In this document: piece after piece, positions 8,578 through 32,108 of the stretch
How the letters are laid out: the number at the start of each line of letters is the position of its first letter
Position numbering within the stretch: position 1 is the stretch's first letter
Virus record (IMG/VR): IMGVR_UViG_3300003971_000005
Span: 1-33,323 of that record
Length of the DNA: 33,323 bases
Origin: a virus
Lineage: Duplodnaviria; Caudoviricetes
Strand: one strand, 5' to 3'
The notes under the pieces: model-generated
Told to the model about the DNA's origin: nothing
Seen by the model: the letters and a program-made list of their open reading frames with translations, nothing else
Databases searched by the model: none
Made by a program: the position numbers and the translations under genes

Positions 8578-9029
8578 TAGGTGACCCTCCCGAGGGGAGG
8601 AGCCGACCAAGCCTTGGTCGCCGCATTCAACGATCCGAGTTCGCCACGAACACCGCAGCCGTAATCGACGAAGGCCAGGACGCGATCAGCATCAACGACC
8701 ACGCCCAGCGCGGTCCAATCACCCTCACCGGGCAGGCCAACGATGTCGCCAGGAAGGGCGCGAGCCGGAGGAATCCGAGAAAGGCCGACCGTGTTATCGA
8801 GGAAGTCCTCGATCCGCTCGTGACCGGATTTCAGGAGGGCGCGCTTCGCCCCGGATTCGGTCGAGTAGCGGCGAATCTTCGCCAGAGGATCGGGATAGCC
8901 AAGCGCGATGAGATTGGCCGCCGCGAGGTGAGCGCAATCGGCTTTGCCCCAGTCAAATGGGCAAAAGACAAAATCCTTGAACACGGATTGCGCCGCATTC
9001 ACTCGCTCGATCAACGGATTGGAACTCAT
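8577..9029 (-). CDS. Tail assembly protein, NlpC/P60-like (gpK/DUF6950-like)
   Basis: FDWGKADCAHLAA motif and ARALPGDIV; position immediately before the gpJ-like gene. Confidence 0.7.
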   Translation of the reverse strand: MSSNPLIERVNAAQSVFKDFVFCPFDWGKADCAHLAAANLIALGYPDPLAKIRRYSTESGAKRALLKSGHERIEDFLDNTVGLSRIPPARALPGDIVGLPGEGDWTALGVVVDADRVLAFVDYGCGVRGELGSLNAATKAWSAPPLGRVT

Positions 9030-9048
9030 CGAGTATTTAGCCTCGACG
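9027..9048 (-). promoter_or_regulatory. TAAATA element (9034-9039) in a hairpin loop
   Basis: CGUCGAG-GCUAAAUA-CUCGAUG; N4 to ATG. Confidence 0.8.
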
Positions 9049-9054
9049 GCGAAA

Positions 9055-9729
9055 TCACCCGTTGGGACGGAAGATCGAGTCGAGGATGTCGCGCGGCGTT
9101 GCCACTACTGGTCTTGGTGCGGTGTTTGTCGGCTGCGCCTTGGTCGCCGCCTCGGCTCCCCACATCGGATCGACAAGGCTATCGACGTTGAAATCGAGGC
9201 CGGTCTCACCCGCCCATATCGATTGATGCCAAGCGCGGTTTAGGCGGGCGGCCTCACTCGTGATGAAGAGCCGGTCGAAGGCCGAGGCGACATCGAGTTC
9301 AACGACGCGACCGGTATCGACAACGGTGGTCTTGGCGGTTTCGAGCCGACCCGACCAAACGAGTTCGGGCGTTCCGACGACAAGGCCAGTCGCTTCGCTC
9401 ACGATGCCGATCCAAACATAGACGCGGGAGCCCTGAGCGAGTGGAGCCGACAAGGCGCCGACCGCCGAATTCGACGGCGGGAGAAGCGAGACCTGGAGCC
9501 TGGGCGCCGATGTCGCGATGGATTCGTTGATCGAAGAGACCGCGTTGAGGGTGCCGAAGACGGCATCCTTTGACGTGAAGGTCACGGCGGTTCCGTTGAC
9601 GGGAAAGGTCACTTGGCCAGAGCCGCTGACGAGACAGATGGGGTCTTCGCCGATCTCGATCCTGACGGCGGTGAAGACGCGGATGAATGAGCCGCCGAGG
9701 GCGGTGGAAAGCGTCCCGTCCATCGTCAT
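9055..9729 (-). CDS. Minor tail/tail-tip protein (gpL-position)
   Basis: 224 aa; synteny; WHQSIWAGETGLDF C-terminal motif typical of this gene position; ATGA coupling with upstream gene. Confidence 0.65.
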   Translation of the reverse strand: MTMDGTLSTALGGSFIRVFTAVRIEIGEDPICLVSGSGQVTFPVNGTAVTFTSKDAVFGTLNAVSSINESIATSAPRLQVSLLPPSNSAVGALSAPLAQGSRVYVWIGIVSEATGLVVGTPELVWSGRLETAKTTVVDTGRVVELDVASAFDRLFITSEAARLNRAWHQSIWAGETGLDFNVDSLVDPMWGAEAATKAQPTNTAPRPVVATPRDILDSIFRPNG

Positions 9730-10322
9730 TGAGCCTCGACGATCCGGAACGTCAGCCCGACGTTTTCGAGGAAGCCGACCGTCCAGGAGGCGGAGTCGCC
9801 ATCGACGAAGCCCTCGATCTTCGGAGACGCGAATTCACAAACCGCGTTCGCCGCCGGGCTCACCTTCAACATCGGGAGGATCGGGACCGCGACGGCTCCG
9901 CCGCCGGTCGGCGCGGTCACATCGGCGCGGACTCTGTGGAGGTAGCGAACGCCGCCCTGGACGATGCTGAAGAATTGGCCGTTGCGGATTTCATAGCCGT
10001 CGCTGAAGCCGGAGATCGTGAGGCTCGATCCGGTTTGCCCGGCGCCGCTGACGATGGGCGATCCCGGCGATCCGACATCGAAGCCCGGTTGAGGGAAGGC
10101 GACTAAGAGTTTGTCGCTAAGCCCCTGGAGAAGGGCGGTAATCACCGCTCCGGCCTGGGCGACGCGCATCGGGCGACACACGACCTCCAATATCCAGCGG
10201 TCGCCGAGACGAGCGATCCGTTGATCCGGACCGCCCATGATCGGGGTGAGGGTGTTGGCGTTTGAGCGAAGCGCGAAGGTCGTCGAGGACCCGGCGGGCA
10301 AAGTTGGAAATGATGTGGTCAC
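9726..10322 (-). CDS. Distal tail protein (Dit/gpM-position)
   Basis: 198 aa directly after tape measure; QRIARLGDRW motif; GTG start 5 nt after TAAATA. Confidence 0.65.
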   Translation of the reverse strand: MTTSFPTLPAGSSTTFALRSNANTLTPIMGGPDQRIARLGDRWILEVVCRPMRVAQAGAVITALLQGLSDKLLVAFPQPGFDVGSPGSPIVSGAGQTGSSLTISGFSDGYEIRNGQFFSIVQGGVRYLHRVRADVTAPTGGGAVAVPILPMLKVSPAANAVCEFASPKIEGFVDGDSASWTVGFLENVGLTFRIVEAQ

Positions 10323-10344
10323 TTCGATATTTATCGAAGCGACC
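10317..10344 (-). promoter_or_regulatory. TAAATA element (10328-10333) at a hairpin apex
   Basis: GGUCGCUUCGAU-AAAU-AUCGAAGUGACC; 12 bp with one G-U; N5 to GTG. Confidence 0.85.
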
Positions 10345-10354
10345 TCAATCGGGA

Positions 10355-13300
10355 TTACCGGCCCAGGCGGTTCCTCGCCGAGGTCATGTTATCGCGGGCC
10401 ATTTGCTGTTTGGTCGCCATCATCCCCTGCAAGACACCCTCATTGATCCAGCCCTTCACGGTCTGAGTCAGGACCGCATCACGGGCCTCGACGATGATGT
10501 TGTTTGTGAATTGCTGGACCGGAGCCGCCCGCGATCCCGTGACCTTCATCGCCTGACGAACAACGCTGTGAGGGATGACTTGGGAGCCGGTCGGAAGAGT
10601 GATGATCTCATCGCCCTTTTCGTTGATCGTGGTCGGGCCGCCCCGCCAGAAACGGGTTCCCATGGCGTTCGAACCCATATGGGCCGACGCGCTCGATTTC
10701 GATCCGCCGGATTTCGATCCGCCGCCGCCCAGGCCGATCATCTTTAGGCCCCAGCCTGGACCGTTGCCGGTCGCGAGGCCGATGGCTTCCCACATCGCCC
10801 ATTGAATGAAGATTTTCAGAAGGCTTGCGACGACTTCCTTGGCCATGTTCGCCATAGCTTCAGAGAAAGATTCGGCGCCCATGATGGCGTTGACGAGACC
10901 ATCGGAGATCGCGCTCAGCCCTTGATTGGCGATGTCCATCATTGAGGCCGAGAAAGACTTTCCAGCCGTCTGAGCCGCCATGAATGCGTCGATCCATTCC
11001 TGGAGAGATTCCGGGCCGCGCTCGCCCTTCTGCTCATTGCCGAGCCCGGCGGTCTGCCCGGCTTTGATCCCGTCCCGGTTCCGTTGCCGTTCAGCTAGAG
11101 CGGCCTCGATATCGGCCTTGGCGTGGCCGTTCTTGATCCATTGGAGCCGCAAGGCTTCCTGTTCGGCGGCGAAGATGAGGTCATCGGCGGCCTGGGTCTT
11201 CGCCAGGGCTTGCCGCTCATATTCCTGCCGCTCATTGAGGGTCGTCGCGAGTTCGGCCTTCGCGCTTAGTTCATCGGCCTCGATCCGGAGGGCTTCAGCC
11301 GCCGTCTGGGTTCGGGTGTCGTTGATTTCAGCCTGGGCCGCCGCGATCTCTTCCGCCCGGCGGGCGGTCTCGGCCTCTTTCTTGGCGAGGTAGGTTTGCC
11401 CCTCCAGGCTGACGAGCTTTTCAGCCGCCGCCTGGGTGATCTCGCCATCAATGGCGCGTTGTTCGATTGCGCGGATGTTCGCATCACGCTCCTCGATCAG
11501 GGCTTCAAGGGCGACGCGGTGACGGTCTTCGCCGGTGGTCGCGAGAGCCCTAAGGGCCTCGGCTAATTCGCGCTCAGCGCGTTCAACCGCCTCGGCGGAC
11601 TCACGCTCGATATCGTCTGCTGACTTGCCGCCGCCTTTGCCTTTGCCGCCGCCCGTGGGTTTCGTAACCGCTGGCGGCGGGCCATAGCCTTCGACACCGC
11701 CGGGCTTTTTTGCGTCAGCCATGATTTTCGCGAGGTTGGCTTTCGCCTCGTTAAGGGCGCGAAGATTCACGGCCTCCTTTGCCGCTGCCGCCGACACTTT
11801 CGGGTCTGCCTCGACGACCCGACCAACGAGCGCGTCATAGCCACGCGGCTGGATTCGAGGGCCGTCCCCGCCGCCCATCGGGGCGCGCGTCGAGACCGTT
11901 GCCTTGGTCCGGGCTACCCGCGTTTCGCGTTGGGAATCCGCGTAGTCCGTCTTGCTCTGTTCCAGGCTTGCGGCGGCGGCGGCCCGCGCTGCCTCCCAAG
12001 CGGCGAGCGCCATGCGGCCATAAGCCGTCGTCAGCAGGTCAACACGACCGGTGAGATTCGCCGTCGCGGTGAGGGCGGCGAGTTCTTTCTCAGTCAGGTT
12101 GCCGGTCGCGATCCTCGCCTTCGATGCGGCCTTGTCGGCGGCCTCAAAAGCGATCCGCTTTTCCTCAGTCCGCTCGGCGAGATCATGGGAGCTTTCGGCG
12201 GCCTTTGCGGATTGAAGGGCGAACGCGCCCAGCGCAACCGTGATCGCCGTGATCGCAAGGCCGATGCCCGTCGCCGACATCAACGCCCGCATCGACATCG
12301 TTGCGACGACAGCCGCACGGCTCACGCCATGGATGGCTGCGGTCTTGGCCACGAGTTGTCCGGTGTGGGCAATGTTCGCGGCCATCGATCCGACCGTCGC
12401 GGCAGCATATCCACCCATTGCAATCGCCGCCCGACCGACCGCCGGAGCCATGGCAACCGACAACGCGACGACGATCACGCCGAGCGAGTTGGCGACGACA
12501 TCGAGATTGTTGGCCAGGAGCGCGAGGGCTTCGCTCAGGCGCCGCGTAACGCCAAGGCTCGCGTCTGTGTCACCCATGAACTTGATGAGCGAGGTCGAGA
12601 GGTTCGTATAGGACTGAGCGACCGTGAGAGGTGCGCGGGCCGCTTTGGCTTCAAGGCTGGCCGATCCCGCAATGATGAGGTCGAAGAACTCTTTCGAGGA
12701 CAGTTTCCCGGCCAGGACATCGGTCCGCATTTTCGCGACCGATCCGCCGTATTTCGCCGAGGCTCCCGCCGCCGCCTGGAGAAGCGGAAGCATCCCTTCT
12801 GTCATCGAGTTGAATTCTTCGGCGCGGACCGTTCCGGCGCCCAGCGCCTGGGCCATTTGGAGCATGGCGCCGGAGGATGATGCGGCGGTTCCGCCAGAGA
12901 CCCGGATCGCCGCCGAGACGGCATCGGTGACCCGGAGAATTTGCTCCTGACTTACGCCGAGTTCGGTCGATGCCGAGGCGACACGGCCATAGAGTTGGCC
13001 GAGGCTTTCAAGCTCAACGCCGTTCTTGATCGCGCCTTCGTAAAGCCGTTTCTGGACAGTTTCGAGCGCGGCGCCTTCAACGCCCGCGACCTTCAATGAG
13101 TTGGTGAACCGGGCGTAGGTGTCGGCGAGCGCGATGGCCGCCGCGATCCCGGCTCCCGACGCGATGGCGGCAATCGAGGCCATCAATTCGGTTCGGAGTG
13201 ACCCGAGGCCCGCGCCAAGACTCCGGTTTAGAGCCCCGCCGATATTCGAGTTCGCCCAGGCCCGATTTGCGCCGCGTGCAGCCTGTTGGTGTTGATTTGC

Positions 13301-13408
13301 GATGTTCTGCGCGGCCCGCGCGTTGAGGGCCTGGAGCCGCTTTAATTCGCGGTCAAAATCGACGATGTTTGCTTGGTAACGCGCTACAAGTGTTGCTGTG
13401 ACTGCCAT
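10355..13408 (-). CDS. Tail tape measure protein
   Basis: 1017 aa Ala-rich helical; tape-measure motif QMAQALGAGTVRAEEFNSM; C-terminal GGPTTINEKGDEII. Confidence 0.92.
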   Translation of the reverse strand: MAVTATLVARYQANIVDFDRELKRLQALNARAAQNIANQHQQAARGANRAWANSNIGGALNRSLGAGLGSLRTELMASIAAIASGAGIAAAIALADTYARFTNSLKVAGVEGAALETVQKRLYEGAIKNGVELESLGQLYGRVASASTELGVSQEQILRVTDAVSAAIRVSGGTAASSSGAMLQMAQALGAGTVRAEEFNSMTEGMLPLLQAAAGASAKYGGSVAKMRTDVLAGKLSSKEFFDLIIAGSASLEAKAARAPLTVAQSYTNLSTSLIKFMGDTDASLGVTRRLSEALALLANNLDVVANSLGVIVVALSVAMAPAVGRAAIAMGGYAAATVGSMAANIAHTGQLVAKTAAIHGVSRAAVVATMSMRALMSATGIGLAITAITVALGAFALQSAKAAESSHDLAERTEEKRIAFEAADKAASKARIATGNLTEKELAALTATANLTGRVDLLTTAYGRMALAAWEAARAAAAASLEQSKTDYADSQRETRVARTKATVSTRAPMGGGDGPRIQPRGYDALVGRVVEADPKVSAAAAKEAVNLRALNEAKANLAKIMADAKKPGGVEGYGPPPAVTKPTGGGKGKGGGKSADDIERESAEAVERAERELAEALRALATTGEDRHRVALEALIEERDANIRAIEQRAIDGEITQAAAEKLVSLEGQTYLAKKEAETARRAEEIAAAQAEINDTRTQTAAEALRIEADELSAKAELATTLNERQEYERQALAKTQAADDLIFAAEQEALRLQWIKNGHAKADIEAALAERQRNRDGIKAGQTAGLGNEQKGERGPESLQEWIDAFMAAQTAGKSFSASMMDIANQGLSAISDGLVNAIMGAESFSEAMANMAKEVVASLLKIFIQWAMWEAIGLATGNGPGWGLKMIGLGGGGSKSGGSKSSASAHMGSNAMGTRFWRGGPTTINEKGDEIITLPTGSQVIPHSVVRQAMKVTGSRAAPVQQFTNNIIVEARDAVLTQTVKGWINEGVLQGMMATKQQMARDNMTSARNRLGR

Positions 13409-13433
13409 CGACTATTTAGGCCGATGCAGTCAC
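13398..13433 (-). promoter_or_regulatory. TAAATA element (13413-13418) in a hairpin loop, tape measure
   Basis: GUGACUG-CAUCGGC-CUAAAUA-GUCGAUG-G-CAGUCAC; 14 bp; N4 to ATG. Confidence 0.85.
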
Positions 13434-13444
13434 TTGCTTGGTCG

Positions 13445-14016: not shown

Positions 14017-14447
14017 TAGACCTCGGCGACGACGACGGGACCGGCCTGCTCAAGCGTGAGTTGGTTCTCGCCCGGCTTGGTCCGGTCGGCGGAGATTTGG
14101 AAGCTCGTCAGGACGAACGGGCCGGTGATGGTCCAATTTCCATCGGTGACGCGGGCGGTGAATTCCGATCCGGCTTCCCAGCGTTCGATCCATTCATAGG
14201 TCGAAGTCGCATCCATCATCCCGGCGCCGTCGATCTTCACGTCGAGGGATTTCACCCGGCGGAACTTCTGAGCCGGAGCGGATTGATCGGCGAGATCAAC
14301 GAGGTCGTCGGTTTCAACATCGGTCGAGAACGTAACGCCTCGCGTAGTGTTGACGACGTTTGTGTGAGCATAGACGACAGTGTTACCGGAAGGCGTGCCG
14401 ATCTGAACGAGAAGTTGGTGGCCGAGGACCGGCGTAATTGTTGACAT
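14016..14447 (-). CDS. Major tail tube protein
   Basis: 143 aa; synteny; GGAGA SD; TGPFVLTSFQISAD. Confidence 0.8.
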   Translation of the reverse strand: MSTITPVLGHQLLVQIGTPSGNTVVYAHTNVVNTTRGVTFSTDVETDDLVDLADQSAPAQKFRRVKSLDVKIDGAGMMDATSTYEWIERWEAGSEFTARVTDGNWTITGPFVLTSFQISADRTKPGENQLTLEQAGPVVVAEV

Positions 14448-14452
14448 ATTAT

Positions 14453-14484
14453 CTCCGAATTGAGTGGTGGTTCGGAGGTATTTA
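14453..14484 (-). promoter_or_regulatory. TAAATA element (14479-14484) plus SD-sequestering hairpin, tail tube
   Basis: TAAATA-C-CUCCGAA-N11-UUCGGAG(SD). Confidence 0.75.
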
Positions 14485-15637: not shown

Positions 15638-15868
15638 CTACTCGACCTCCTCGCCGTCGAGGTCGTCGTCGAGATCGGGATCGGAAAGGCGTTCGATGAA
15701 GTCGCCGAACTCATCATCGACTTCGATGGCGGCGTTGGCGGCCAGGGCGAGATCAGCGCATGCCTGATCGACTTCGCCCTCATATCCGGGGGGATATGCA
15801 ATCGTCACATAGCGGTTGTCGGAAGGCGTATATTCGAAGCGGCGGGTGAAGCGAATTAGGGTCTGCAT
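15638..15868 (-). CDS. Small acidic hypothetical head-region protein
   Basis: 76 aa; own TAAATA 4 nt upstream. Confidence 0.6.
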   Translation of the reverse strand: MQTLIRFTRRFEYTPSDNRYVTIAYPPGYEGEVDQACADLALAANAAIEVDDEFGDFIERLSDPDLDDDLDGEEVE

Positions 15869-15891
15869 CTCGTATTTAGCGAGATCGACCC
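15859..15891 (-). promoter_or_regulatory. TAAATA element (15873-15878) in a hairpin loop
   Basis: GGGUC-G-AUCUCG-CUAAAUA-CGAGAU-GCA-GACCC; N4 to ATG. Confidence 0.8.
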
Positions 15892-15901: not shown

Positions 15902-16498
15902 TCAGCCGAAGAACCCGACGCGATAGCGGGCCAAGACGGTTTCGACACCGAACGGAAGATCGATCAACTTGGCCTCAGTCGCCGCTTCCCGGTTCTCAAA
16001 ATAGTGGCCGACCAGCAGCAAGAGCGCATGGCGGAGATCGGCGGGAACGTCCTCGGGATCGTCGCCATAACCGGCGGTGAAGGTCACGCGAAGGGCGCCG
16101 GGTTGCAGCCTCATGGCGGGCCACGATTGGCCGTAAGCGGGATAGAGCCGCCCAGGCGCGATGTCGGGTTCGAAGCTCCAATCGGGTGAGGTCATCGTCT
16201 GAAGGTCGCCGTCTTCGTCGATGTAGGCGACGGCGGTAATTTCCTGGATCGGACCCAAGGGGAGCGTCACGCCTTCGCGAGCGCAAGGCCGGTCGAATGA
16301 CTGCCTCCAGGTCTGAGTCAGAAGCGCGATCCCGGCGCCGCTTGGCCCTTCAATGGTCGCCACGGCGGCCTCGATCAGGCCGTCGATCAAGTCGTCGTCT
16401 TCATCGTGAGTGACGCGAAGGTGAGCCTTCGCCTGGGCGAGGGTGATGGGGAGTTCGGTAGGCTGAATCGTTCTGACGAGGTTGTTCCAGTGTCGCAT
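15902..16498 (-). CDS. Head-tail connector (HK97 gp6/phiE125 gp8-like)
   Basis: PITLAQAKAHLRV, LLTQTW, FTAGYG, LLVGHYFENRE. Confidence 0.9.
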   Translation of the reverse strand: MRHWNNLVRTIQPTELPITLAQAKAHLRVTHDEDDDLIDGLIEAAVATIEGPSGAGIALLTQTWRQSFDRPCAREGVTLPLGPIQEITAVAYIDEDGDLQTMTSPDWSFEPDIAPGRLYPAYGQSWPAMRLQPGALRVTFTAGYGDDPEDVPADLRHALLLLVGHYFENREAATEAKLIDLPFGVETVLARYRVGFFG

Positions 16499-16516
16499 CG
16501 AGTATTTATCGATACG
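16494..16516 (-). promoter_or_regulatory. TAAATA element (16503-16508) in a hairpin loop
   Basis: CGUAUCGA-UAAAUAC-UCGAUGCG; N4 to ATG. Confidence 0.8.
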
Positions 16517-17135: not shown

Positions 17136-18338
17136 TTAAGCCTTGATCGTGATCACCTTGATGGCCTTGGAATCCAGGAGTTCGGAGTCGTAACGGGCGA
17201 AGCCGATGAATCCGACGAGTCCTTGATCGGCGTAACGCTCATTGAGCCTCACGACGTTGATCCCCTTCACGGCGCGAACCGCGAAACGCTTGAAGTCGCC
17301 AAACAAGATCGGCTTTGCGCCCGCGCCAATGGAAGCCATGGCGGGGTTGATCACGTAGGAATGACCGAAGATCGTGCCGGGCTGGCCAGCGATCACGGAC
17401 GGCTGCCAGAGGTATTCGCCCGACGTTTCCGCCTTCAGCTTACGAAGAACCAGGGCGGTCGCATCGTTGAACATCATCGTCGCCGAGGCGCGATAGGCCG
17501 GATCAACACTGTGGATCAGGGTCAGGATTTCATCCGCCGTGACAGTGGTGTTGGCCGCCGTCGTGAAGGCCGAAGTCGCGGCGCCAACGATGCCTTGCGG
17601 CTTGTCGGAACCGTCGCCGGTCGTGAACGCGGCGTTGAGGGCGCGACCCAGGCGTTCGCCGATGGCCGAGTTGACGAAGCTAACGACATCGTAGCCCGAG
17701 TCCTGAAGCAACTCATCCGACACGGTGATCACGCCGGACTTATATTTGTGGGCGCCGAGGGACTTGGTGCCGAACGTCAGGCTTTCCGCGCTGACTACGG
17801 TGTTCTCGCTAATCAACGATCCAGAGTTTCCGGTGTCGTCGTTGGTCGCAACATTGAGTTGGCCGCCGCCCAGCGTCTCGATCAAGTTGACGAGGCCAGG
17901 GTTCAGCATCGGGCCGAAGGCGGCCATCGACTGAACGATCTGGGCATAGTGGGTCTGAGGGACGAGGTATCCGCCCTCGGCGCCGGTGCCGCCTACGGTC
18001 TGAGCACGGAATTCCGAACGCTCTTCACGAGACAGGGTGTCGCGGATGAAGCCGGTCCAGAGGGCGGCTTCGCGATCTTCCGCCGAGGCGGGCTTTGCGG
18101 TTTCGATCTGACGATCTTCGACCGGGCGGCGTGCGGCGAGTTCGGCCTCGGCGCGGGCTGCGTCGCGGGCTTCGAGATCGGCGAGACGGTCGGCGCGGGC
18201 GTTGAGGGCATCACTCTCGGCCAGCATGCGATCAAATTGGGCTTCGGTATCGGAGGCCAATTCGGTGTTGTCGGTGAGTAGAGCGCGGGCTTCGTGCTCG
18301 ATGCGGAGGGCTTTCTCCCTTAGTTCTTTGATATTCAT
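17136..18338 (-). CDS. Major capsid protein, HK97 fold with N-terminal delta domain
   Basis: EGGYLVP, VSDELLQDS, GDGSDKPQGI, YLWQPS, ILFGDF motifs. Confidence 0.97.
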   Translation of the reverse strand: MNIKELREKALRIEHEARALLTDNTELASDTEAQFDRMLAESDALNARADRLADLEARDAARAEAELAARRPVEDRQIETAKPASAEDREAALWTGFIRDTLSREERSEFRAQTVGGTGAEGGYLVPQTHYAQIVQSMAAFGPMLNPGLVNLIETLGGGQLNVATNDDTGNSGSLISENTVVSAESLTFGTKSLGAHKYKSGVITVSDELLQDSGYDVVSFVNSAIGERLGRALNAAFTTGDGSDKPQGIVGAATSAFTTAANTTVTADEILTLIHSVDPAYRASATMMFNDATALVLRKLKAETSGEYLWQPSVIAGQPGTIFGHSYVINPAMASIGAGAKPILFGDFKRFAVRAVKGINVVRLNERYADQGLVGFIGFARYDSELLDSKAIKVITIKA

Positions 18339-18403
18339 CGATAGTCCTAATCAATCATTTGGGTTTCTCCGTGCGATTGGCTAGGACTGAGGGGGATCGG
18401 CTT

Positions 18404-19012
18404 TTAAGACTTACGTTGGTGTAGCTTGAGCTTCATTCTCAGCCGAGCGCGAGCACTGGCCGAGTATTTATCTTCAGTGGTCCGTTCTTCTGTTTTCGCC
18501 CATTCTTCCATTGAGCGAAGGGCGGCTTCAGTTGCCGGATAGGCCGGGTTCACGACCGGGCTGATCTCGATCAGGTCAACGTCGATAAGGGTTCGGAGCG
18601 GAAGATCGCCGTCGCGACGCTCCCAAGTGTCGGCGATGACGCGGAAGCCGAAACTGACTTGGAGATCGCCGTCGCGGGCCGCGTCGAGTTGCGCGGGCGT
18701 GAACCGGGTCGTGTCCAGGGTGAAGCGAAGGCCGCGCTCATCGCTCGCCAGGGTGAGCTTTCCGCCCCGCGTCGATCCCAGCGGCTGGCGGCTATCGTGC
18801 GACCACAAGGCTTGGATAGAGACCTCACCGGCGGCGGCGGCCTGGAGGCTGCGATCAAACGCGGTCGGCGCGACCCGCTCGATGAATCCGCCGAGGTCGA
18901 GAGAGTCTGAATTGAAGACGCTCGCGTAGCCGCTAAGCGAGCGGCCTTCGTCGTCGGCGGCGGTGTTGTCCAGGATGAGGGCGAAGGCCCGTTGTTCGAT
19001 GATGTTCTTCAT
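18404..19012 (-). CDS. Prohead protease (HK97 family)
   Basis: GYASVFNS, ALWSHD, SFGFRV, EISPVVNPAYPAT. Confidence 0.95.
   Translation of the reverse strand: MKNIIEQRAFALILDNTAADDEGRSLSGYASVFNSDSLDLGGFIERVAPTAFDRSLQAAAAGEVSIQALWSHDSRQPLGSTRGGKLTLASDERGLRFTLDTTRFTPAQLDAARDGDLQVSFGFRVIADTWERRDGDLPLRTLIDVDLIEISPVVNPAYPATEAALRSMEEWAKTEERTTEDKYSASARARLRMKLKLHQRKS
18461..18472 (-). promoter_or_regulatory. TAAATA element embedded in the protease 3' end, upstream of capsid
   Basis: GATAAATACTCG, identical to the 12-mer before the connector gene; 126 nt upstream of capsid ATG. Confidence 0.65.
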
Positions 19013-19028
19013 CGACTATTTAGCGACG
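19010..19028 (-). promoter_or_regulatory. TAAATA element (19017-19022), protease
   Basis: CGUCG-CU-AAAU-AG-U-CGAUG; N4 to ATG. Confidence 0.75.
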
Positions 19029-19035: not shown

Positions 19036-20280
19036 TTACGCCGCTTGTGCGGTCGGGCTGGCCTGGGGCTGGGAGCCGAGCGGCGTGGTCGCGCCTTGAA
19101 TGTGGAGCTTGTCCGCGTCGGGTTGATCGGACGGCGGAAGGTTATCGAGCGCGCGAACTTCGTTGGGCGTGCGAATGCCGTTCTGGATCGCGGTCGCGTA
19201 ACCGGCCATCCGCGTGGCGAAGTCGCCTCTCAACATGCCGTCGATGTTGAATTCGACGAAGAGCGAGCGATTGCGGTCGCTGAAGAGCTTCGCGTTTAGC
19301 TCTTGCTCGATGAGTTCGATCCAAGGCGCCAGGGTGTGCTTGGCGAAGCTGATATCGGCCTGTTCGGTGTTCGAATATGTCCCGTTGCTCAGGTCTTGGA
19401 GAAAGGTCGGGTTGATGCCGAAGACCCGCGCGATCTCCAGAATTTGGAACTGACGAAGCTCCAGAAGTTGAGCCTTAGAGGGTTCGAACCCGATGGGTTT
19501 GAGGTCGAAGCCGGTCGGCATCGTCAGGATGCCGCGACGCTCACGCTTGGCCGCCTTGACGGCTGCGGCGACATCGGTTGACGCGCGTTCCTGGGCGCCG
19601 GGCGACATCGCCGGGCCGCTCATGACCAGGGGGGGAACGCCGGAAGCGTCGAAGACCGTCGAAGCGTATCGCTCAGCCGCGATGGCGAGGCCGATGGCGT
19701 TCCGGTTGACGATAAGCGGATCGTGGTGACCAACGCCGTCGCCGGTCGGCATCCAAACGAGATCGACGATTTCCCCGGCGCCGTATACGACTTCGCGATC
19801 CGCGAGCCGGTAGCGATAGACGCGGCGACCGCCCTTGATCTCGATGACGACCCGATCCGGATCGAGCGGCCAAAGGTTCATCACCCGGCCAGCCTTGTTA
19901 CGCTCGATGTAGGTGAGTGCGCGGCCTCTCAGGAGAAGCCTGGAGACCATCCACTTTCGCCAAGCGAAGCTCGTCAGGTAGTCGGCGTTAACTTGGTCGT
20001 GGACGATCCGATAGAGCGGGTCGGAATCGGCCTTCGCCCGTCCGTCTTCGGTCCGGCGGAAGAGTTGAAGCGGAAGGCTCGCGATTGCGTCGGAGATTTT
20101 GTTGATCGCGGCGGCAACGGCGGGGACCGCGAGAGCGGTCTGTTCGGTTACGGGCTCGCCCGCGAACGATGATGCCGATCCGAAGATGGTCGCCCAGGCG
20201 CCAGGATCGCTGAGGCTGACGTTGGGATTTTCGAGGGAGGGCGAAGACCTTTGCTCGCCGAAGATGTTAAAGAAACTCAT
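19036..20280 (-). CDS. Portal protein (HK97 family)
   Basis: AIASLPLQLF, EIARVFGINP, YSNTEQ, TPNEVRALDNLPP. Confidence 0.96.
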   Translation of the reverse strand: MSFFNIFGEQRSSPSLENPNVSLSDPGAWATIFGSASSFAGEPVTEQTALAVPAVAAAINKISDAIASLPLQLFRRTEDGRAKADSDPLYRIVHDQVNADYLTSFAWRKWMVSRLLLRGRALTYIERNKAGRVMNLWPLDPDRVVIEIKGGRRVYRYRLADREVVYGAGEIVDLVWMPTGDGVGHHDPLIVNRNAIGLAIAAERYASTVFDASGVPPLVMSGPAMSPGAQERASTDVAAAVKAAKRERRGILTMPTGFDLKPIGFEPSKAQLLELRQFQILEIARVFGINPTFLQDLSNGTYSNTEQADISFAKHTLAPWIELIEQELNAKLFSDRNRSLFVEFNIDGMLRGDFATRMAGYATAIQNGIRTPNEVRALDNLPPSDQPDADKLHIQGATTPLGSQPQASPTAQAA

Positions 20281-20298
20281 CGAGTATTTAGCTCGATG
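20278..20298 (-). promoter_or_regulatory. TAAATA element (20285-20290) in a hairpin loop, portal
   Basis: CAUCGAG-CUAAAUA-CUCGAUG perfect 7-bp stem; N4 to ATG. Confidence 0.85.
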
Positions 20299-20357: not shown

Positions 20358-21989
20358 TCAGGCCGCGCGAGGGCCGAGGATCGAGAACGAGCTATCTTCC
20401 CAAGGGCTCGATACAGGGGCCGTGAGGCGATCCTCGGCCTTCAAACCCAAAGCCATGGAGACCGCGACTGCACCGTCCATTCTCTTGCGGGCCGCGCTCT
20501 TATTGAATTTCCGGTTGCCTGAAGGATCGGTCACCGCGAGTGCGTTGCCGACGCTGAAGGTCAGGAGCGGATTGCCGTCACTGTGAAGTTCGGCCTGGAG
20601 AACGGCATGTTCGAAGGCGTTGATTGCCTTCCCCATGCTGACGAAGCCCTGCCCCCAAGGGACGATCCGAAGGCCGTCGCCTTCACCCTCCTGGGCCAAG
20701 AGACCGATATCGCCCATGCACCGCATGAGTTCGCCCGTGTAGGCCCTATCGAAAGCCAAGCCGATCACCGGGTTACGGTCATGGATCGTCTTGATCAGGT
20801 GGGCGACGAAGGCCGGATCGATTGAGCGGCCAGGGGTCGCGATCATCCATCCGTGACGCTCGTGAAGCTCGTAGTTCTGGCGGTCGCGGTCGCCATGATC
20901 GCGAAGGGCCTCACGGGGTTTGAAGAACCACGATTTGACCCGTGAACCATCATGGGCCGACACCGCGACCAAGGCCGTGAGGTCGGTTCGAAGGCTCATA
21001 TCGAGGCCGAGATAAACGGGCTCGCCGGGCTCGAATTCGAAAGCATCCTCGGCGGTGAAAGTCGGGGCCGGGAACACTCCGCCCGGAAGGCAGGCCATCC
21101 AATCGGCGCGGGAGATCAGGGCGGCCTCGGCGGCGACCCGTTGATTCAGCCGTAGCAAGCGGAACGATTGCTCCTCGGCGGGAAGGCGTTTCGCTCGCAT
21201 GGCATCGGCCCGGAAGGCATCGAGATCGAGGAAGTCGCCGAGGGCTGGATTGGCGGCCATCCATGCCGATTCATCGAGGAGATCGCAGCCATCGGGCGCC
21301 GCGAACAAGTGACAGACGGTCGAGGGGTCTTCGGCCCGAACGCCGTCGTCGATCATCTGACTGAGGACGTGTTCGGGATCGTCGGATTGGGTCGAGATCA
21401 CCATGAGGAGCGGTTCGGACCGCGCGCCTTGGGATGTCGCCAGGGTGTCGAAGAGTTCGCGGCTTCGCGCCTGGGCGAGTTCGTCAACGATCACGAGTGA
21501 GGGGTTGAGGCCATGTTGGCGGCCAGCGTCGGCGGACAAGGCGCGGAACTTCGAACCCGCCGCCCGGATGTCGGATCGGATGACGAAGATCGTCTTTGTG
21601 GAGTCGACGACCCGCAACAGGCGGCCAAGCGTCGGCGACGCCTCGATCATTCGCTTACAGGCGCCGAACACGATTGCGGCCTGCTGGCGGTCGTTGGCCG
21701 CACTGTAGATTTCGCCGTTCGGCTCCGCCTCAGGGCCGATGAGGTGAGCGAGGATGAGCGCGGCGGCGAGTTCGGTCTTACCGTTCTTCCTCGCTATCGA
21801 GAGGATTGCGCGGCGAACTGCCCGGCGACCATCGGCCCGAACGCCGGAATAGATGTCGCGGATAAAGGCTTTTTGCCATTCGCGAAGGCGGAGCGGCAGG
21901 CCAGCATCGTCGCCAATCGTCACCTTCAGCTTTTCGATGAAGGCTATGACGCGGTCGGCGCGTTCGGTGTTCTTAGTCGGGTTCTGCAC
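20358..21989 (-). CDS. terL: Terminase large subunit
   Basis: Walker A IARKNGKT, Walker B IVDEL, ISTQ, nuclease GLDMS and RMDGAVA. Confidence 0.97.
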   Translation of the reverse strand: MQNPTKNTERADRVIAFIEKLKVTIGDDAGLPLRLREWQKAFIRDIYSGVRADGRRAVRRAILSIARKNGKTELAAALILAHLIGPEAEPNGEIYSAANDRQQAAIVFGACKRMIEASPTLGRLLRVVDSTKTIFVIRSDIRAAGSKFRALSADAGRQHGLNPSLVIVDELAQARSRELFDTLATSQGARSEPLLMVISTQSDDPEHVLSQMIDDGVRAEDPSTVCHLFAAPDGCDLLDESAWMAANPALGDFLDLDAFRADAMRAKRLPAEEQSFRLLRLNQRVAAEAALISRADWMACLPGGVFPAPTFTAEDAFEFEPGEPVYLGLDMSLRTDLTALVAVSAHDGSRVKSWFFKPREALRDHGDRDRQNYELHERHGWMIATPGRSIDPAFVAHLIKTIHDRNPVIGLAFDRAYTGELMRCMGDIGLLAQEGEGDGLRIVPWGQGFVSMGKAINAFEHAVLQAELHSDGNPLLTFSVGNALAVTDPSGNRKFNKSAARKRMDGAVAVSMALGLKAEDRLTAPVSSPWEDSSFSILGPRAA

Positions 21990-22007
21990 CGACTATTTAG
22001 CCGGAGC
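21986..22007 (-). promoter_or_regulatory. TAAATA element (21994-21999), terL
   Basis: GC-U-CCGGCU-AAAU-AGUCGG-U-GC; N4 to GTG. Confidence 0.8.
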
Positions 22008-22072
22008 GGGAGTTCGCCCGGCTTAGTCGCGCCCAGGTAGGCAAAAGGCGCGGCGCCTGTTAGCCATTCTCA

Positions 22073-22537: not shown

Positions 22538-22973
22538 TCAGGCCGTCGAACTCGTCACTCTGTGATTGTTCCGGCGCCGTGATCGCAGCGCGGGACACCG
22601 GATCGAAGCCGAGTTTGGTCGATAGCGTGACCATGAGCCGGGCCTGATCTGACTGAATCTTGACCCAAGGGCTCACGACCAATTGGCCCGTTGAACCCGT
22701 CGTCATCATCCCATGTTCGGCGATAGCGGCGGTCGCGGCTTGGTGACCCGCGTAGGCTTCAGCGAAGGCCACGAGCAACGCCTCATCGACGCTTTGATAG
22801 AGGCCGGGAGGCATGGCGCCGACAAGGCGTTTGAAGATCGCCAGGGCTTCCCGTGAGAGGGACTTCGGCGGGGCCAGGACACCCTTCGCCTTCGGCTCAT
22901 TGCGGTTGAGTTTTTTCTTGGATGGGTTGCCCGCGAGTTCGTGAAGGCGGGTCGGTTTGAGCGGCATAGGCAT
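22530..22973 (-). CDS. terS: Terminase small subunit (P27 family)
   Basis: KPTRLHELAGNPSKKKLN...EP and KLGFDPVSRA motifs. Confidence 0.92.
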   Translation of the reverse strand: MPMPLKPTRLHELAGNPSKKKLNRNEPKAKGVLAPPKSLSREALAIFKRLVGAMPPGLYQSVDEALLVAFAEAYAGHQAATAAIAEHGMMTTGSTGQLVVSPWVKIQSDQARLMVTLSTKLGFDPVSRAAITAPEQSQSDEFDGLIN

Positions 22974-22997
22974 CGGGTATTTAGGCCCGGCTCATGC
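22964..22997 (-). promoter_or_regulatory. TAAATA element (22978-22983), terS
   Basis: GCAUG..CGGG-CCUAAAUA-CCCG..UAUGC; N4 to ATG. Confidence 0.8.
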
Positions 22998-23492
22998 TTC
23001 GTTCGTCGAAGCCTTGCCGTCGAGGGTCTTGAACACCGGGCCTGTTTTGGGAAGAGCGACACCGGCGGGCCAACGGATGGCCGAACACCGCGACTTCGCG
23101 ATTTTGACCACGGAAACCGCATCGCCCTGATTACCGCCGAGGACGTGGTAATAGCTCGCGTCTTCGCTGACATAGAAACCGACGTGTCCGCCCCCTTGCC
23201 GCGTGAAGACCAGGACGGCGCCCGGCGAGGGTTTCGCCAAGGCCACTCCCCACTTTCCCCACTCAGAGGCCCGGATAGCGATGCCGGGAGGGATGAGGCC
23301 GTTCTCGACTACGCAATAGGCCGCGAAGAGACCGCACCACGGAACATGGTCGCCATCATATTTGATGCCGAGGAACTTAGCGGCGCGAGTTGCCCAGCGC
23401 ATAATCAGGGGATTGTTTTGAGCACCCGCATATTCCTTAACACCGATGCAGGCCCGTGCAGTCAGCATCCAGGCGGGAAGAGTCGTAGTCAT
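22992..23492 (-). CDS. TIGR02594-like NlpC/P60-type peptidoglycan hydrolase (endolysin candidate)
   Basis: PWCGLF, GGGHVGFY and LGGNQGDAV motifs. Confidence 0.8.
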   Translation of the reverse strand: MTTTLPAWMLTARACIGVKEYAGAQNNPLIMRWATRAAKFLGIKYDGDHVPWCGLFAAYCVVENGLIPPGIAIRASEWGKWGVALAKPSPGAVLVFTRQGGGHVGFYVSEDASYYHVLGGNQGDAVSVVKIAKSRCSAIRWPAGVALPKTGPVFKTLDGKASTNEA

Positions 23493-23497
23493 GACTC

Positions 23498-23540
23498 TAT
23501 TTATGCTCGCCGATATTGTGGCGTTCTGGCTATTTATTTA
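23498..23540 (-). promoter_or_regulatory. TAAATA elements before the hydrolase gene (23498-23503; overlapping pair 23531-23540)
   Basis: TAAATA-N5-ATG, and TAAATAAATA further upstream. Confidence 0.7.
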
Positions 23541-25533: not shown

Positions 25534-25822
25534 CGCGCTTGGCCTTCATCCTCAAGCGGCTTTCGCGGCGTTGGCGAAGCACCTTCTCCCGGTTTGCGGC
25601 GTAGTATTCCCGAGCCCGCTCCCGGATCGCATCGGCGTTGCGTTCCCGGTAACGGTCCTGGGTTGCCTTAAACTTGTCCGGGTTGGCCTTGTTCCACTTC
25701 ATAGAGTTCTTCGAAGCATGAAGGGAGCAACACCGCTTACAACGGTGATCGTGTTTTCTTTGTCGGCTTGGAAACCAATTCTCTGACGTGAGTTCTACTG
25801 AACATCTAATGCAAATTACCAT
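25526..25822 (-). CDS. Zn-finger-like (CxxC...CxxC), Arg/Lys-rich hypothetical protein
   Basis: CIRC...CKRC then a basic helical tail; first gene of the leftward arm; TAAATA 5 nt upstream. Confidence 0.7.
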   Translation of the reverse strand: MVICIRCSVELTSENWFPSRQRKHDHRCKRCCSLHASKNSMKWNKANPDKFKATQDRYRERNADAIRERAREYYAANREKVLRQRRESRLRMKAKRDE

Positions 25823-25827
25823 GAATG

Positions 25828-25857
25828 TATTTATGCAGACACGTTCAGATTTCGCAA
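25828..25857 (-). promoter_or_regulatory. Leftward promoter TTGCGA-N18-TAAATA
   Basis: -35-like 25852-25857; TAAATA 25828-25833; N5 to ATG. Confidence 0.7.
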
Positions 25858-26275: not shown

Positions 26276-26302
26276 GCCCCGGCTGATCGCGTGGCGCGAA
26301 TA

Positions 26303-26332
26303 TTGCGGCCAAGTCTCGTGTTATGCTAAATA
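26303..26332 (+). promoter_or_regulatory. Rightward promoter TTGCGG-N18-TAAATA
   Basis: Precedes the candidate sRNA. Confidence 0.65.
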
Positions 26333-26335
26333 GTA

Positions 26336-26421: not shown

Positions 26422-26439
26422 ATTTCATGACGAATCAAA

Positions 26440-26469
26440 TTGCAAGAAAAGAAATGAGAATGATAAATA
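26440..26469 (+). promoter_or_regulatory. Rightward promoter TTGCAA-N18-TAAATA
   Basis: 49 nt before primase ATG, just after the terminator. Confidence 0.65.
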
Positions 26470-26518
26470 ACTTCAGACGCAAGGTCCGTGACAGACAATA
26501 ACGGGCCGATAGGACAAA

Positions 26519-27610
26519 ATGACTGAATCGAATACACACATCGAAGTCTCTTATCTTCGACAAACATACTATTGCAAGCACCGCACTGAGACGGTTCTTC
26601 ATCAATCCCGCATTACGGACGTTGAGGGCTATGAGGATTTCGCCTCATTCGTTCACGGCTTCCTCGACTTGGCGACCTATCCCAGGCCGGTGACCTCCAA
26701 AATGGAAACCTACGGCTGGACCCCGGTCCTATTCGAACCCTCGATCAATCATCATGGCGAAGACGGCGTGTGGCGTGATGGCCAGTTCGCCAACGACGAA
26801 CTCACGCTCTTCGTCGCCGACCTCGATAATCAGAACGCCGACCGGACGATCATCGACCTCGGCGATGTCGCCGACACCCTCACCGATCTCGGCCTAAGCC
26901 ATCTCCTCTATACGTCGTTCACCTCCAGGCCGGAGCGACCCAAGTTCAGGATCGTGATCCCGGTCACTCGCCCGCTCACCTGTGACGAAGCCTTCACGGT
27001 CTTTGAGTGGTTCAACGCCGCTTTCGACCGGCAACTCGACGGCTCGATCTATGATCCGGGCGATCACCTCTATGGGCCGACCGCGACCTCAACCGTAGTG
27101 ATCAAGACGGACGGTCAATCTCTCGACGTTGATCGCTTCATCGCCATGACGGCGGAGTTGCCGGAGGAATTGCGGACCCGGCGTCGCCGTGACGCTCACC
27201 CGGTCGCCAGGGCCGAGGCTACGCCGGAAGAGCGGGAGGCCATGACCCGCTTGGCCGCCACGCTCACCCGGACCGATGGGGTCTCGATCCGCAATCCCCA
27301 GGTCTTCAACCCGGCATGGCTGGATTTGATGGCCGAGCGATACATTGAGCAATCGCACTCGCAAACCGCGTTTGGCCTTCTCACCAAGGCTTGGATGAAA
27401 TCGGGCGGAACGCTCAGCCGTGGTGATCTCGAATATCTCTATGAGGAGATCGACGCGGAATTCTACGGCTACCTGAGCCGCAATTACGGGCGCCATGAGC
27501 GCGACCGGGGAATCTCCTCGATCATGCGCCGACCGGTCCCGGTCCTCGACAAAACGACCGCCCTGGAGCGTCGAGTCAGTTCGCTGACACGTCGCCTGGG
27601 CCTGAACTAA
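26519..27610 (+). CDS. Primase-polymerase (AEP/PrimPol-like) replication protein
   Basis: ADLDN (DxD) and LLYTSFTS...PKFRIVIP motifs; adjacent to ori and helicase; AGGA SD. Confidence 0.75.
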   Translation: MTESNTHIEVSYLRQTYYCKHRTETVLHQSRITDVEGYEDFASFVHGFLDLATYPRPVTSKMETYGWTPVLFEPSINHHGEDGVWRDGQFANDELTLFVADLDNQNADRTIIDLGDVADTLTDLGLSHLLYTSFTSRPERPKFRIVIPVTRPLTCDEAFTVFEWFNAAFDRQLDGSIYDPGDHLYGPTATSTVVIKTDGQSLDVDRFIAMTAELPEELRTRRRRDAHPVARAEATPEEREAMTRLAATLTRTDGVSIRNPQVFNPAWLDLMAERYIEQSHSQTAFGLLTKAWMKSGGTLSRGDLEYLYEEIDAEFYGYLSRNYGRHERDRGISSIMRRPVPVLDKTTALERRVSSLTRRLGLN

Positions 27611-29136: not shown

Positions 29137-29188
29137 CGTTTGCATAAATAGATTGGTCAACACCGAAAGGGCCTATCTTATGCAAACG
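29137..29188 (+). promoter_or_regulatory. TAAATA element (29145-29150) overlapping the 5' arm of a start-occluding hairpin
   Basis: CGTTTGCATAA/TTATGCAAACG perfect 11-bp inverted repeat containing ATG 29180. Confidence 0.8.
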
Positions 29189-29416: not shown

Positions 29417-29440
29417 TCGATCTCGCCTAAATAGGATCGA
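29417..29440 (+). promoter_or_regulatory. TAAATA element (29428-29433), spanins
   Basis: TCGATC...CCTAAATAG-GATCGA(TG); N6 to ATG. Confidence 0.75.
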
Positions 29441-29871
29441 TGTCAGCCATACTCGCCAGGATCGGCTTCGCCTTCATCGACCCCAGAACGGCGTTGGTCG
29501 CCTGGGGTTCGGTCTTCGCCTTATGCGCGGTCGGATATGGCCTTTGGTCCTGGACCACGATTGGCGGCCTGCGGAAAGAACAAGCCGCCATCGTCGAGAG
29601 AAATGATCGGCTCGCCACGGCGAACAAAGACCTCATCGAGGATCAAGCCGATATCCTCAACCGGGTCGAGGCGATGAATGTTGAGGTCGAGGTTCTGAAT
29701 TCGAAGTTCGGCCAATCGATCACGCGGCGCCAACGGGCCTATGAATCCCTCACCACGCCGGACGTTCCGCCCGGTGTGAGGCCCGATACCCTCGATATGG
29801 AATCGCGGGCGAACGCGGGAATGAACCAACTCTTCGATGAGCTTCGATCTCTATCGGCGGTGTCGAAATGA
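29440..29871 (+). CDS. Inner-membrane spanin (Rz-like)
   Basis: N-terminal TM helix then coiled coil; ATGA-coupled to a lipoprotein gene. Confidence 0.75.
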   Translation: MSAILARIGFAFIDPRTALVAWGSVFALCAVGYGLWSWTTIGGLRKEQAAIVERNDRLATANKDLIEDQADILNRVEAMNVEVEVLNSKFGQSITRRQRAYESLTTPDVPPGVRPDTLDMESRANAGMNQLFDELRSLSAVSK

Positions 29872-31188: not shown

Positions 31189-31372
31189 TCCCGAGGATGG
31201 CCGCGACTTCCTGACCTGGGCCGTCGAGATCGGTCTCCAGGCCCGCGACCTCACGACTCCCGAGGCGCCGTTCCCCCGCTACCGCCTGATCGAAATCCAA
31301 GGGGACGAACTCGAATCCAAAATCGAGATCGAGAGTTGGTTCGCCTTCGTCGTCAGCCTCGGCGTGGTTTGA
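31160..31372 (+). CDS. Hypothetical protein
   Basis: Phage-like codon usage; start uncertain (31139 or 31160). Confidence 0.45.
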   Translation: MIRAVLRFDDPEDGRDFLTWAVEIGLQARDLTTPEAPFPRYRLIEIQGDELESKIEIESWFAFVVSLGVV

Positions 31373-31481
31373 ATGATCGCAATACTAAGCGAATTCAATA
31401 TAGGTGTCGCATAATGGCAACACTAACAAGAAAAGTAGACGAGTCCGCGATAGATATGGACGGCTCGTGTAGTGGTTTGCA

Positions 31482-31487
31482 TAAATA
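31482..31487 (+). promoter_or_regulatory. TAAATA element
   Basis: CATAAATA 56 nt before ATG 31544. Confidence 0.6.
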
Positions 31488-31543
31488 CTATTGAAGACGA
31501 ATTGAACAAAAGGGTTCACGAATTCAATGATTGGACAAAAGAA

Positions 31544-32062
31544 ATGACTGAATATGATTTAATGAAAGAGGTTGCCGCATTAGTGACCACGCTCCTCGAC
31601 TCCAGGGGTTGCCAGAGAGACACCGGCTCCAGTTTCGAAGATATGCACTTCGTTATCCACGCCGATGATGCCTTGGATTTACCGACGACATATTCATTCC
31701 TGCGCGATGATTGGCGCGAACTCGGAGATTTCTCCGGAGAAATCACGATCCGGGAAGTCACGCGGAAGAGGATCGAGGCCGCCGCGATGACGACATTCGG
31801 CCCGTTTATCCGGTTTCCGTTCCGCGTCACTGAGGGCCGGGTTGTGGTTCCGGGTCGCTACGCCACACGCGGCCATCGCTTCAGCCGCAAACGTCTTCGA
31901 CATTACGCGGAATGGGCCTCACGAGCCGCCGCGAGTTGGGAACCCGAGGCCAAGGATCGTCGGCTTTATGAGCATATCGTCGCGCACGGCGTTGCCGACG
32001 ACTACGCGCACGAAAAGAGCCTGCGGGTGATGTCGGAGGGCCTGTTGGCGCAGGCGCTCTGA
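31544..32062 (+). CDS. Hypothetical protein
   Basis: Likely ATG 31544 with GGA upstream; TAAATA at 31482. Confidence 0.65.
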   Translation: MTEYDLMKEVAALVTTLLDSRGCQRDTGSSFEDMHFVIHADDALDLPTTYSFLRDDWRELGDFSGEITIREVTRKRIEAAAMTTFGPFIRFPFRVTEGRVVVPGRYATRGHRFSRKRLRHYAEWASRAAASWEPEAKDRRLYEHIVAHGVADDYAHEKSLRVMSEGLLAQAL

Positions 32063-32079
32063 TCACGGCGAGGGCCATG

Positions 32080-32108
32080 GGGGCGCGATCATAAATAGCT
32101 CGTGCCCC
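32080..32108 (+). promoter_or_regulatory. TAAATA element (32092-32097) in a hairpin loop, methyltransferase
   Basis: GGGGCGCGA-UCAUAAAUAGC-UCGUGCCCC; 9 bp with one G-U; N4 to GTG. Confidence 0.8.

Follow-up and report, generated by a model that had tools for sequence, protein, structure and literature searches.

TAAATA in the window and in related prophages

The virus record IMGVR_UViG_3300003971_000005 (Duplodnaviria; Caudoviricetes) was analyzed over its full length of 33,323 nt, in the following called the window, with respect to the hexamer TAAATA, which precedes many of its genes, and to RNA hairpins that cover the respective start codons. The window is a 33.3-kb provirus with a GC content of 61%, in which family scans identified an HK97-type head module, a siphoviral tail, a CHAP lysin, a primase, a VapE helicase and a DNA methyltransferase, and it probably also encodes a spanin pair (TAAATA site of the first gene at 29417..29445 on the plus strand). 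The same scans of the window gave no match to integrase, repressor or sigma factor families, to gp33 or gp45, or to a phage RNA polymerase. The sequence is a trimmed provirus, rated 38% complete by CheckV, and its proteins map to an 82.6-kb contig. Named relatives of the helicase are from Brevundimonas (44%), which makes a Caulobacter-like alphaproteobacterium the probable host. When the helicase and the primase were used as queries, viral scans returned no confirmed relative, and a search of 301 Alphaproteobacteria yielded a single distant helicase match and reached no Caulobacteraceae host genome.

TAAATA occurs 24 times in the window (one overlap included), compared to 1.4 copies expected from an order-2 model. 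Seven copies are located on the plus strand within the rightward gene block and the remainder on the minus strand within the leftward block; the motif heads both divergent blocks and stands on the sense strand ahead of the virion and lysis genes. In 12 of the 24 cases the ATG or GTG of an open reading frame (ORF) follows 4-5 nt downstream, nine times after four nucleotides (N4) and three times after five (N5), whereas 0.47 such cases are expected (P 1.6e-13). Shine-Dalgarno (SD)-like words are present at one of these 12 genes versus 9 of 19 control genes. A preliminary description of this DNA had assigned the motif and a hairpin to almost every structural and lysis gene. This goes too far, as TAAATA is found at most 14 nt before the start at only 11 of the 24 junctions of the leftward block, while nine starts overlap or abut the preceding stop codon and four junctions have neither; two of these four, at the major capsid and the major tail gene, carry a leadered TAAATA.

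The same motif and spacing were detected by pattern scans in HK97-type siphoviral, P22-like podoviral and SPP1-like proviruses, mostly from Sphingomonas, where the many pattern matches whose flanks lacked TAAATA enrichment were dropped as chance. A total of 301 Sphingomonas genomes contain 78 motif-plus-ATG matches, many of them singletons, and far fewer matches to the reversed control. In genome G006, 8 of 16 motif-plus-start matches fall in one 32-kb prophage.

Comparable motifs are known from T4-like phages. The T4 late promoter TATAAATA spans positions -13 to -6 without a -35 element, and in Aeh1 the late promoter CTAAATA begins at -12 (PMC1524935, PMC2988020). The jumbo phage CBB is described as having ATAAATA together with gp55 and without gp33 or gp45 homologues (PMC5259590), and the -10-like element is reported to be read directly by gp55 (PMC7892883). 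Across 136 de-duplicated prophage sites C or A precedes TAAATA in 130 cases, all upstream positions carry 0.24 bit or less, -35 matches are not enriched, and neither an activator motif nor a conserved -35 region was found. Furthermore, the region 8000-27000 of the window contains one sigma70-like promoter compared to 4.5 in shuffled sequences.

These data also bear on the possibility that TAAATA is a -10 hexamer for the host sigma70 and depends on a phage activator, for which the winged-helix ORF at 32850-33323 is a candidate. GCTAAATA is similar to the Caulobacter -10 consensus GCTANAWC, and this 157-aa (amino acid) ORF has a weak match to a MarR-like fold. Moreover, in the Thermus phage Lalka27a 16 late promoters are described as leaderless, and no sigma factor is recognisable (10.64898/2026.04.20.719267). 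However, a start 6 nt past the hexamer as in Lalka27a would here fall within the start codon, the 136 sites lack the corresponding signals, no one-mismatch variant of TAAATA serves as a site in the window, enrichment is lacking at host genes, as illustrated by G006, and no activator gene common to the element types was seen. Therefore, we consider a sigma70 promoter very unlikely; going by its predicted fold, the ORF at the edge of the window may nevertheless regulate the element.

The spacing is shared by large phages that encode gp55. We analyzed the best 80 of at least 596 confirmed viral loci with a jumbo-type gp55, 73 of which lie next to gp46/gp47-like genes, and found that the distance from TAAATA to ATG peaks at N4 (21 vs 2.6) and N5 (25 vs 3.2), with 14 and 23 cases after collapsing repeats. 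Caulobacter phage Cr30 encodes gp55 as well (E-value 1.5e-50), and TAAATA is the second most depleted of 4075 hexamers in this phage (27 copies vs 60.8 expected), with sense copies preceding what we take to be capsid and sheath genes. In phiM12, (C/A)TAAATA stands ahead of genes that are presumably late structural genes.

Hairpins at the start codons

In Caulobacter, translation initiation is reported to be governed by the accessibility of the start codon (PMC8459731; 10.1101/2022.10.10.510831). The preliminary description had listed 13 sites at which the start codon would be locked in a sense-strand hairpin. We examined stems across TAAATA (type 1) at the 14 sites with a start at N4-N7 by constrained folding against shuffles of the 20 upstream bases, an approach that replaced a noisier unconstrained masking statistic. 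Six of the 14 sites reach p<0.05 on the sense strand (TAAATA at 9039, 10333, 13418, 15878, 20290 and 32092; Fisher 7e-8), and in a smaller rerun 9039 (p 0.11) and 22983 (p 0.05) were both borderline. The stem at 29137, which covers the ATG at 29180, also beats its shuffles (-20.0 vs -8.1, p 0.002), and a strand-neutral count finds stems at 8 of the 14 sites, compared to a null mean of 1.0 and a maximum of 4 in 300. Seven of the 13 proposed hairpins thus beat shuffled sequences, the short stems at 16494, 29417, 22964, 21986 and 19010 stay at p 0.08-0.16, and the hairpin at 242 does not rise above its shuffles (Table 1). At 21999 and 19022, and at the lysin (23503), the preferred stem is of a second type that had not been described before. 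In these type 2 stems, which were found at the lysin, large terminase and protease genes, the 4-5 nt spacer and the start codon base-pair with the beginning of the coding sequence.

Masking is also enriched in the relatives but not in the lytic jumbo phages, with z values of 2.25 in the window (10 of 12 sites positive), 1.07 in the relatives (32 of 48) and -0.07 in the jumbo phages (19 of 41), where stems are not enriched at the TAAATA sites (1/41). Among the 48 relative sites, from which 8 sites selected by the search patterns themselves had been removed, significant cross-stems occur at 8 and significant downstream stems at 10, and in a second set of relatives cross-stems reach p<0.05 at 15 of 68 sites (Fisher 2e-5). 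Orthologues rebuild their stems in single compensatory cases, from GAG/CTC to GGG/CCC at the portal gene and from CAGG/CCTG to CTGG/CCAG at the podoviral adaptor gene, and the stem of the tail-tip gene is of the cross type in the window and of the downstream type in loci L035 and L010, with the AUG covered throughout. At the major tail gene the stem masking the SD sequence begins in the 4-nt spacer, and a transcription start at N4/N5 removes it. Loci L008 and L080 share this design, which is that of T4 gene e: their leadered capsid and tail genes have long SD-masking stems with a 5' arm that starts in the motif or the spacer.

It is possible that the promoter reading is right and that the majority of stems arise by chance or have a role in RNA stability or pausing, masking being real at only a few genes. 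The moderate number of singly significant sites (6/14), the lack of a common register and the weak masking in gp55 carriers are in line with this, but the strand-neutral count far above its null, the enrichment in two sets of relatives with none in jumbo phages, and orthologues that swap stem types while the AUG stays covered make it unlikely.

Taken together, we consider it quite probable that TAAATA defines a regulon of leaderless late promoters of the gp55 type with partial masking by hairpins. In the proposed mechanism, host RNA polymerase with a gp55-type sigma factor would read TAAATA, and transcription would begin at or beside the start codon 4-5 nt downstream. On longer RNAs hairpins would shut the start codons of the TAAATA genes, whereas an AUG-initiated transcript would lack the upstream arm of type 1 stems as well as the 4-5 nt spacer needed for type 2 stems; at the major tail gene, the late transcript would lack the arm that covers the SD sequence. 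What the sequences show are the motif, its spacing, the enriched stems, a lack of SD, activator and -35 signals and a gp55 gene in a syntenic relative; this start site, the leaderless translation and the silencing are inferred. Where a gene has no TAAATA of its own, it overlaps the preceding stop codon and would be translationally coupled. Since the primase and helicase genes follow TAAATA too, the sigma factor would be the master switch of the lytic programme. The logic of T4 gene e, which the preliminary description had proposed for these hairpins, is supported by these results and seems to apply more literally than assumed there, as TAAATA behaves like a late promoter of the gp55 type.

Several points weigh against this reading. 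Only about half of the TAAATA sites carry significant stems, and as orthologues switch or lose them, the former statement that read-through RNA is untranslatable was too strong. The cost of opening the start on read-through RNA is modestly above that of controls (7.2 vs 5.3 kcal/mol, p 0.04, with two control starts mis-set by 3 nt). The covariation between homologous phages that would have been in line with the preliminary description did not emerge from a fixed-register permutation test pooled over all N4 sites, which was not significant, and related DNA in four further runs yielded no usable covariation. At the capsid leader, the SD stem persists in a transcript that begins at 18470 or at N4/N5. 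In T4 numbering +1 falls at N5, and the commoner N4 requires a start one base earlier. Cr30 and phiM12 match in motif without matching in leaderless arrangement, as starts at N4/5 number 0 in Cr30 and 2 in phiM12 and use is leadered; in addition, phiM12 shows no depletion of TAAATA (65 vs 44.7). Finally, significance is also reached on the antisense strand at 4 of the 14 sites, and the excess of G-U pairs on the mRNA strand, formerly taken as a sign of selection on RNA structure, was recovered in the window (6 G-U, 0 A-C, p 0.016) and is absent in the relatives (4:3).

The antisense signals would also fit palindromes that work at the DNA level as hairpins or cruciforms, comparable to the hairpin promoters of the N4 type. 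This is scarcely credible here in view of the G-U pairs of the window, the weak DNA-parameter energies of the palindromes, the many window sites and nearly all jumbo sites without stems, and the outcome of the family scans for a phage RNA polymerase. The preliminary description had also considered UAAAUA as a Com-like RNA operator, and the motif, frequently inside the 7-nt loop of the stem, could likewise be a cleavage site that opens it. Yet it is also kept where it lies in the arm of a stem (29145, 14484) or away from any stem (23503, 25833), always at promoter distance, the same spacing recurs in the stemless jumbo phages, and the motif heads both divergent blocks. Furthermore, cutting or binding the loop would leave type 2 stems intact; for a spacer-type stem to vanish, the RNA has to begin at the start codon itself, and this speaks against such an activity. 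An RNA operator is thus a remote alternative to the leaderless promoter.

Table 1. TAAATA sites and the candidate regulator of the window (negative numbers are folding energies)
Feature	Position	Strand	Stem or other property
TAAATA (251-256), 7 nt before ATG of 80-aa ORF	241..270	-	weak stem, p 0.28
TAAATA-N4-ATG, 150-aa tail-tip gene (DUF6950)	9027..9048	-	cross-loop stem, p 0.02; rerun p 0.11
TAAATA-N5-GTG, distal tail protein	10317..10344	-	12-bp stem, -20.2, p 0.002
TAAATA-N4-ATG, tape measure	13398..13433	-	14-bp stem, one bulge, -22.3, p 0.002
Leadered TAAATA, major tail protein	14445..14484	-	SD-masking stem, -17.5 vs -3.8
TAAATA-N4-ATG, 76-aa head-tail region gene	15859..15891	-	cross-loop stem, p 0.002
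TAAATA-N4-ATG, head-tail adaptor	16494..16516	-	8-bp stem, p 0.145
Leadered TAAATA (18465-18470, within protease gene), major capsid	18336..18470	-	SD-masking stem
TAAATA-N4-ATG, prohead protease	18995..19028	-	spacer and AUG pair with coding region, p 0.07
TAAATA-N4-ATG, portal	20278..20298	-	perfect 7-bp stem, 7-nt loop, p 0.007
TAAATA-N4-GTG, large terminase	21975..22008	-	downstream-type stem preferred, p 0.07
TAAATA-N4-ATG, small terminase	22964..22997	-	interrupted stem, p 0.08
TAAATA-N5-ATG, CHAP-domain lysin	23479..23503	-	spacer pairs with coding region, p 0.04; no cross-loop stem
TAAATA-N5-ATG, first leftward gene (98 aa)	25820..25833	-	no stem, p 0.56
Leadered TAAATA ahead of primase and VapE helicase	26464..26521	+	
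TAAATA (29145) in 5' arm of long stem over ATG 29180	29137..29187	+	p 0.002
TAAATA-N6-ATG, first gene of probable spanin pair	29417..29445	+	7-bp stem, p 0.145
TAAATA-N4-GTG, DNA methyltransferase	32078..32111	+	long stem, two G-U pairs, -25.0, p 0.012
157-aa ORF, candidate regulator	32850..33323	-	predicted winged-helix (MarR-like) fold, best E 3.7e-3; not sigma-like

Some further features of the window are worth mentioning. The 80-aa ORF that follows the TAAATA at 251-256 may encode a holin-like protein. Within the loop of the capsid SD-masking stem (18336-18385, minus strand) lie a GGAG and a short ORF of three codons (M-I-D-stop), the stop codon of which overlaps the capsid SD sequence, and translation of this ORF might release the stem; in runs X2 and X3, related contigs have 117 different letters in place of 18339-18462. 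The gene at 586-8577 (minus strand) encodes a tail fibre of 2663 aa that contains very long repeats of Ala/Thr/Asn/Ser, and a comparable 2800-aa gene is present in genome G308. Three inserted genes lack TAAATA, namely a Schlafen AlbA_2 gene at 23580-24695 (plus strand) and two orphan genes at 16538-17059 (minus strand) and 22073-22537 (plus strand), and locus L001 differs from the window where these three are inserted. Between the divergent blocks (25880-26260), direct and inverted AAGTTAGG repeats flank an AT-rich core, and judged by this sequence arrangement the region is likely a replication origin. For a 196-aa ORF the structure model was unusable (pLDDT 34).

The source of the sigma factor

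The window yielded no gp55 match (best E-value 1.6 with a broad model), whereas leave-one-out runs of the same model recover four gp55 copies carried by prophages at E<=3e-31. One of these is found in G308, where the gene order matches that of the window across the virion module, from HNH to tail fibre (33-59% identity), TAAATA-N4/5 recurs throughout, and gp55 was matched at E 9.2e-23 and 1.2e-63. The gp55 gene of G308 itself lacks an upstream TAAATA, and the excisionase-like and replication-region genes of G308 possess one. Genomes G146, G261 and G255 likewise combine gp55 with the use of TAAATA-N4/5. A similar word (GCGCATAGT, or CATAGTC), possibly an operator, was noticed upstream of three prophage gp55 genes (L080 5120-5245, L216 near 6203, and contig C122 of G146 near 38604).

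In the 301 Sphingomonas genomes, gp55 was detected in three and motif clusters in seven, with G146 as the only genome having both. The remaining six cluster-bearing genomes gave no gp55 match anywhere, in agreement with the PHROG gp55 model, which has one weak match (E 0.05) elsewhere in G293. Neither G023, a nearly single 3.38-Mb contig with two TAAATA prophages, nor the G006 prophage, which is bounded by an integrase and host genes, contains a gp55 match, and elements that lack gp55 have kept both their motifs and their long ORFs intact. The four carried gp55 copies reside at different places and form long, scattered branches among jumbo-type sequences, according to a quick tree only. Masking is stronger in all 14 gp55-less elements (mean z 0.66-2.92) than in three carriers (0.28-0.43), a post hoc comparison that left out G255 with its single site (2.21), included several close kin and is a hint only.

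As no gp55 gene was found in it, the window would likely become active only once this factor arrives from outside its 33 kb, and we see about an even chance that superinfection by a T4-like jumbo phage provides it in trans. More generally, it is possible, at slightly less than an even chance, that temperate phages of Sphingomonas and Caulobacter-like hosts, comprising three virion types, placed the entire lytic programme under the late sigma factor of T4-like jumbo phages and form a class of sigma-borrowing satellites, from which some lineages became autonomous by capturing gp55. Such prophages would stay silent behind unreadable promoters and folded starts, wake at the late phase of the jumbo phage and exit the doomed cell in their own virions. 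The same promoter and hairpin mechanism could work without an outside helper, using an own gp55 beyond the trimmed ends or that of a co-resident prophage, or the window could be a stranded prophage whose gene was lost; this alternative, which concerns only the origin of the sigma factor, likewise falls a little short of an even chance. The four gp55-carrying relatives, the missing integrase and the low completeness speak for it, and most of the searched genomes are drafts. A further point against the borrowing of a sigma factor is that, due to the trimmed ends, the lack of a sigma gene is established for 33 kb of the 82.6-kb contig only. On the other hand, the gp55-free genomes, in particular G023 and the bounded prophage of G006, the different places and scattered branches of the carried copies in the quick tree and the intact state of the gp55-less elements argue against this alternative. 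For the window itself any of helper supply, a gp55 beyond the ends and gene loss may apply.

A fragment of a T4-like jumbo phage with 59% GC (L071, L196; genome G307) encodes gp55 and has leaderless and leadered TAAATA promoters, and L071 presumably also carries gp46 and gp47. This phage and L115 are candidate helper types. The idea that isolated TAAATA matches in host genomes mark sigma-triggered defence genes was not supported: among 20 singletons read, out of about 40, most had no clear ORF, one was a portal gene and one a prophage piece. GCCTAAATACTCGTATG, which is near the prophage consensus, occurs in L050 and L051 (contig C7 of G006) in a region we take to be 23S rRNA and is probably a chance match.

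Comparison with known systems

The window has the core motif, the lack of a -35 element and the distance to the presumed start in common with the late promoters of T4, Aeh1 and CBB, and syntenic relatives carry a gene of the gp55 family. In contrast to T4, the promoters stand here in a 33-kb HK97-type siphoviral provirus and in P22-like and SPP1-like relatives, where they are mostly leaderless, serve the replication genes too and usually come without gp55. The masking has a precedent in the T4 genes e, soc, 49 and I-TevI, where a stem described as hiding the SD sequence or AUG on long RNA is lost on the late transcript (PMC3014915). The site at 14484 is a direct parallel, whereas elsewhere in the window masking extends over many genes and includes starts without leaders, and in the second type of stem the 5' arm is formed by the 4-5 nt spacer. 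Its purpose is likely silence in the lysogen rather than early-versus-late timing. Promoter and masking principle are already known from T4; no prior description of gp55 promoters in small prophages was found in the literature searched, with subscription journals outside its scope. Late transcription by gp55, described for large lytic T4-like phages, would be extended to small temperate phages as a master control, and the gp55 genes of the four prophages could serve directly as reagents. A promoter that the host does not read, in combination with stems that cancel translation from read-through RNA, would be a compact and tight switch.

Late promoters that depend on an activator are known from Mu (C/Mor) and P2 (Ogr). 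In contrast to these, the prophage sites have no conserved activator site or -35 element, and no such activator family appeared in the scans. Lalka27a resembles the window in being temperate, with gene-by-gene late promoters, leaderless mRNA and no recognisable sigma factor, but its motif TAGGGT fits TANNNT, the start lies 6 nt downstream, a C at -25 is conserved and no link to gp55 is described (10.64898/2026.04.20.719267).

If the gp55-less members are driven by a helper, this would be phage parasitism via a borrowed sigma factor with a one-gene trigger. P4 and PLE are satellites that are awakened by helper infection. Compared to such satellites, the window has its own head, tail, lysis, primase and helicase genes, and what it would borrow is the late sigma factor. 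Helper-dependent phages with their own virion genes are known from Streptomyces; the comparison with MulchRoom and MiniFlayer concerns an integrated element that would wake with a virulent helper, and Mulch and Flayer are described as encoding their own encapsidation genes (PMC10690885). Another such case is PICMI, an integrated element awakened by a virulent helper, for which the source states as open how the helper activates it (PMC10803314). A borrowed gp55, if true, would give a concrete answer to the question how an integrated element senses a virulent phage.

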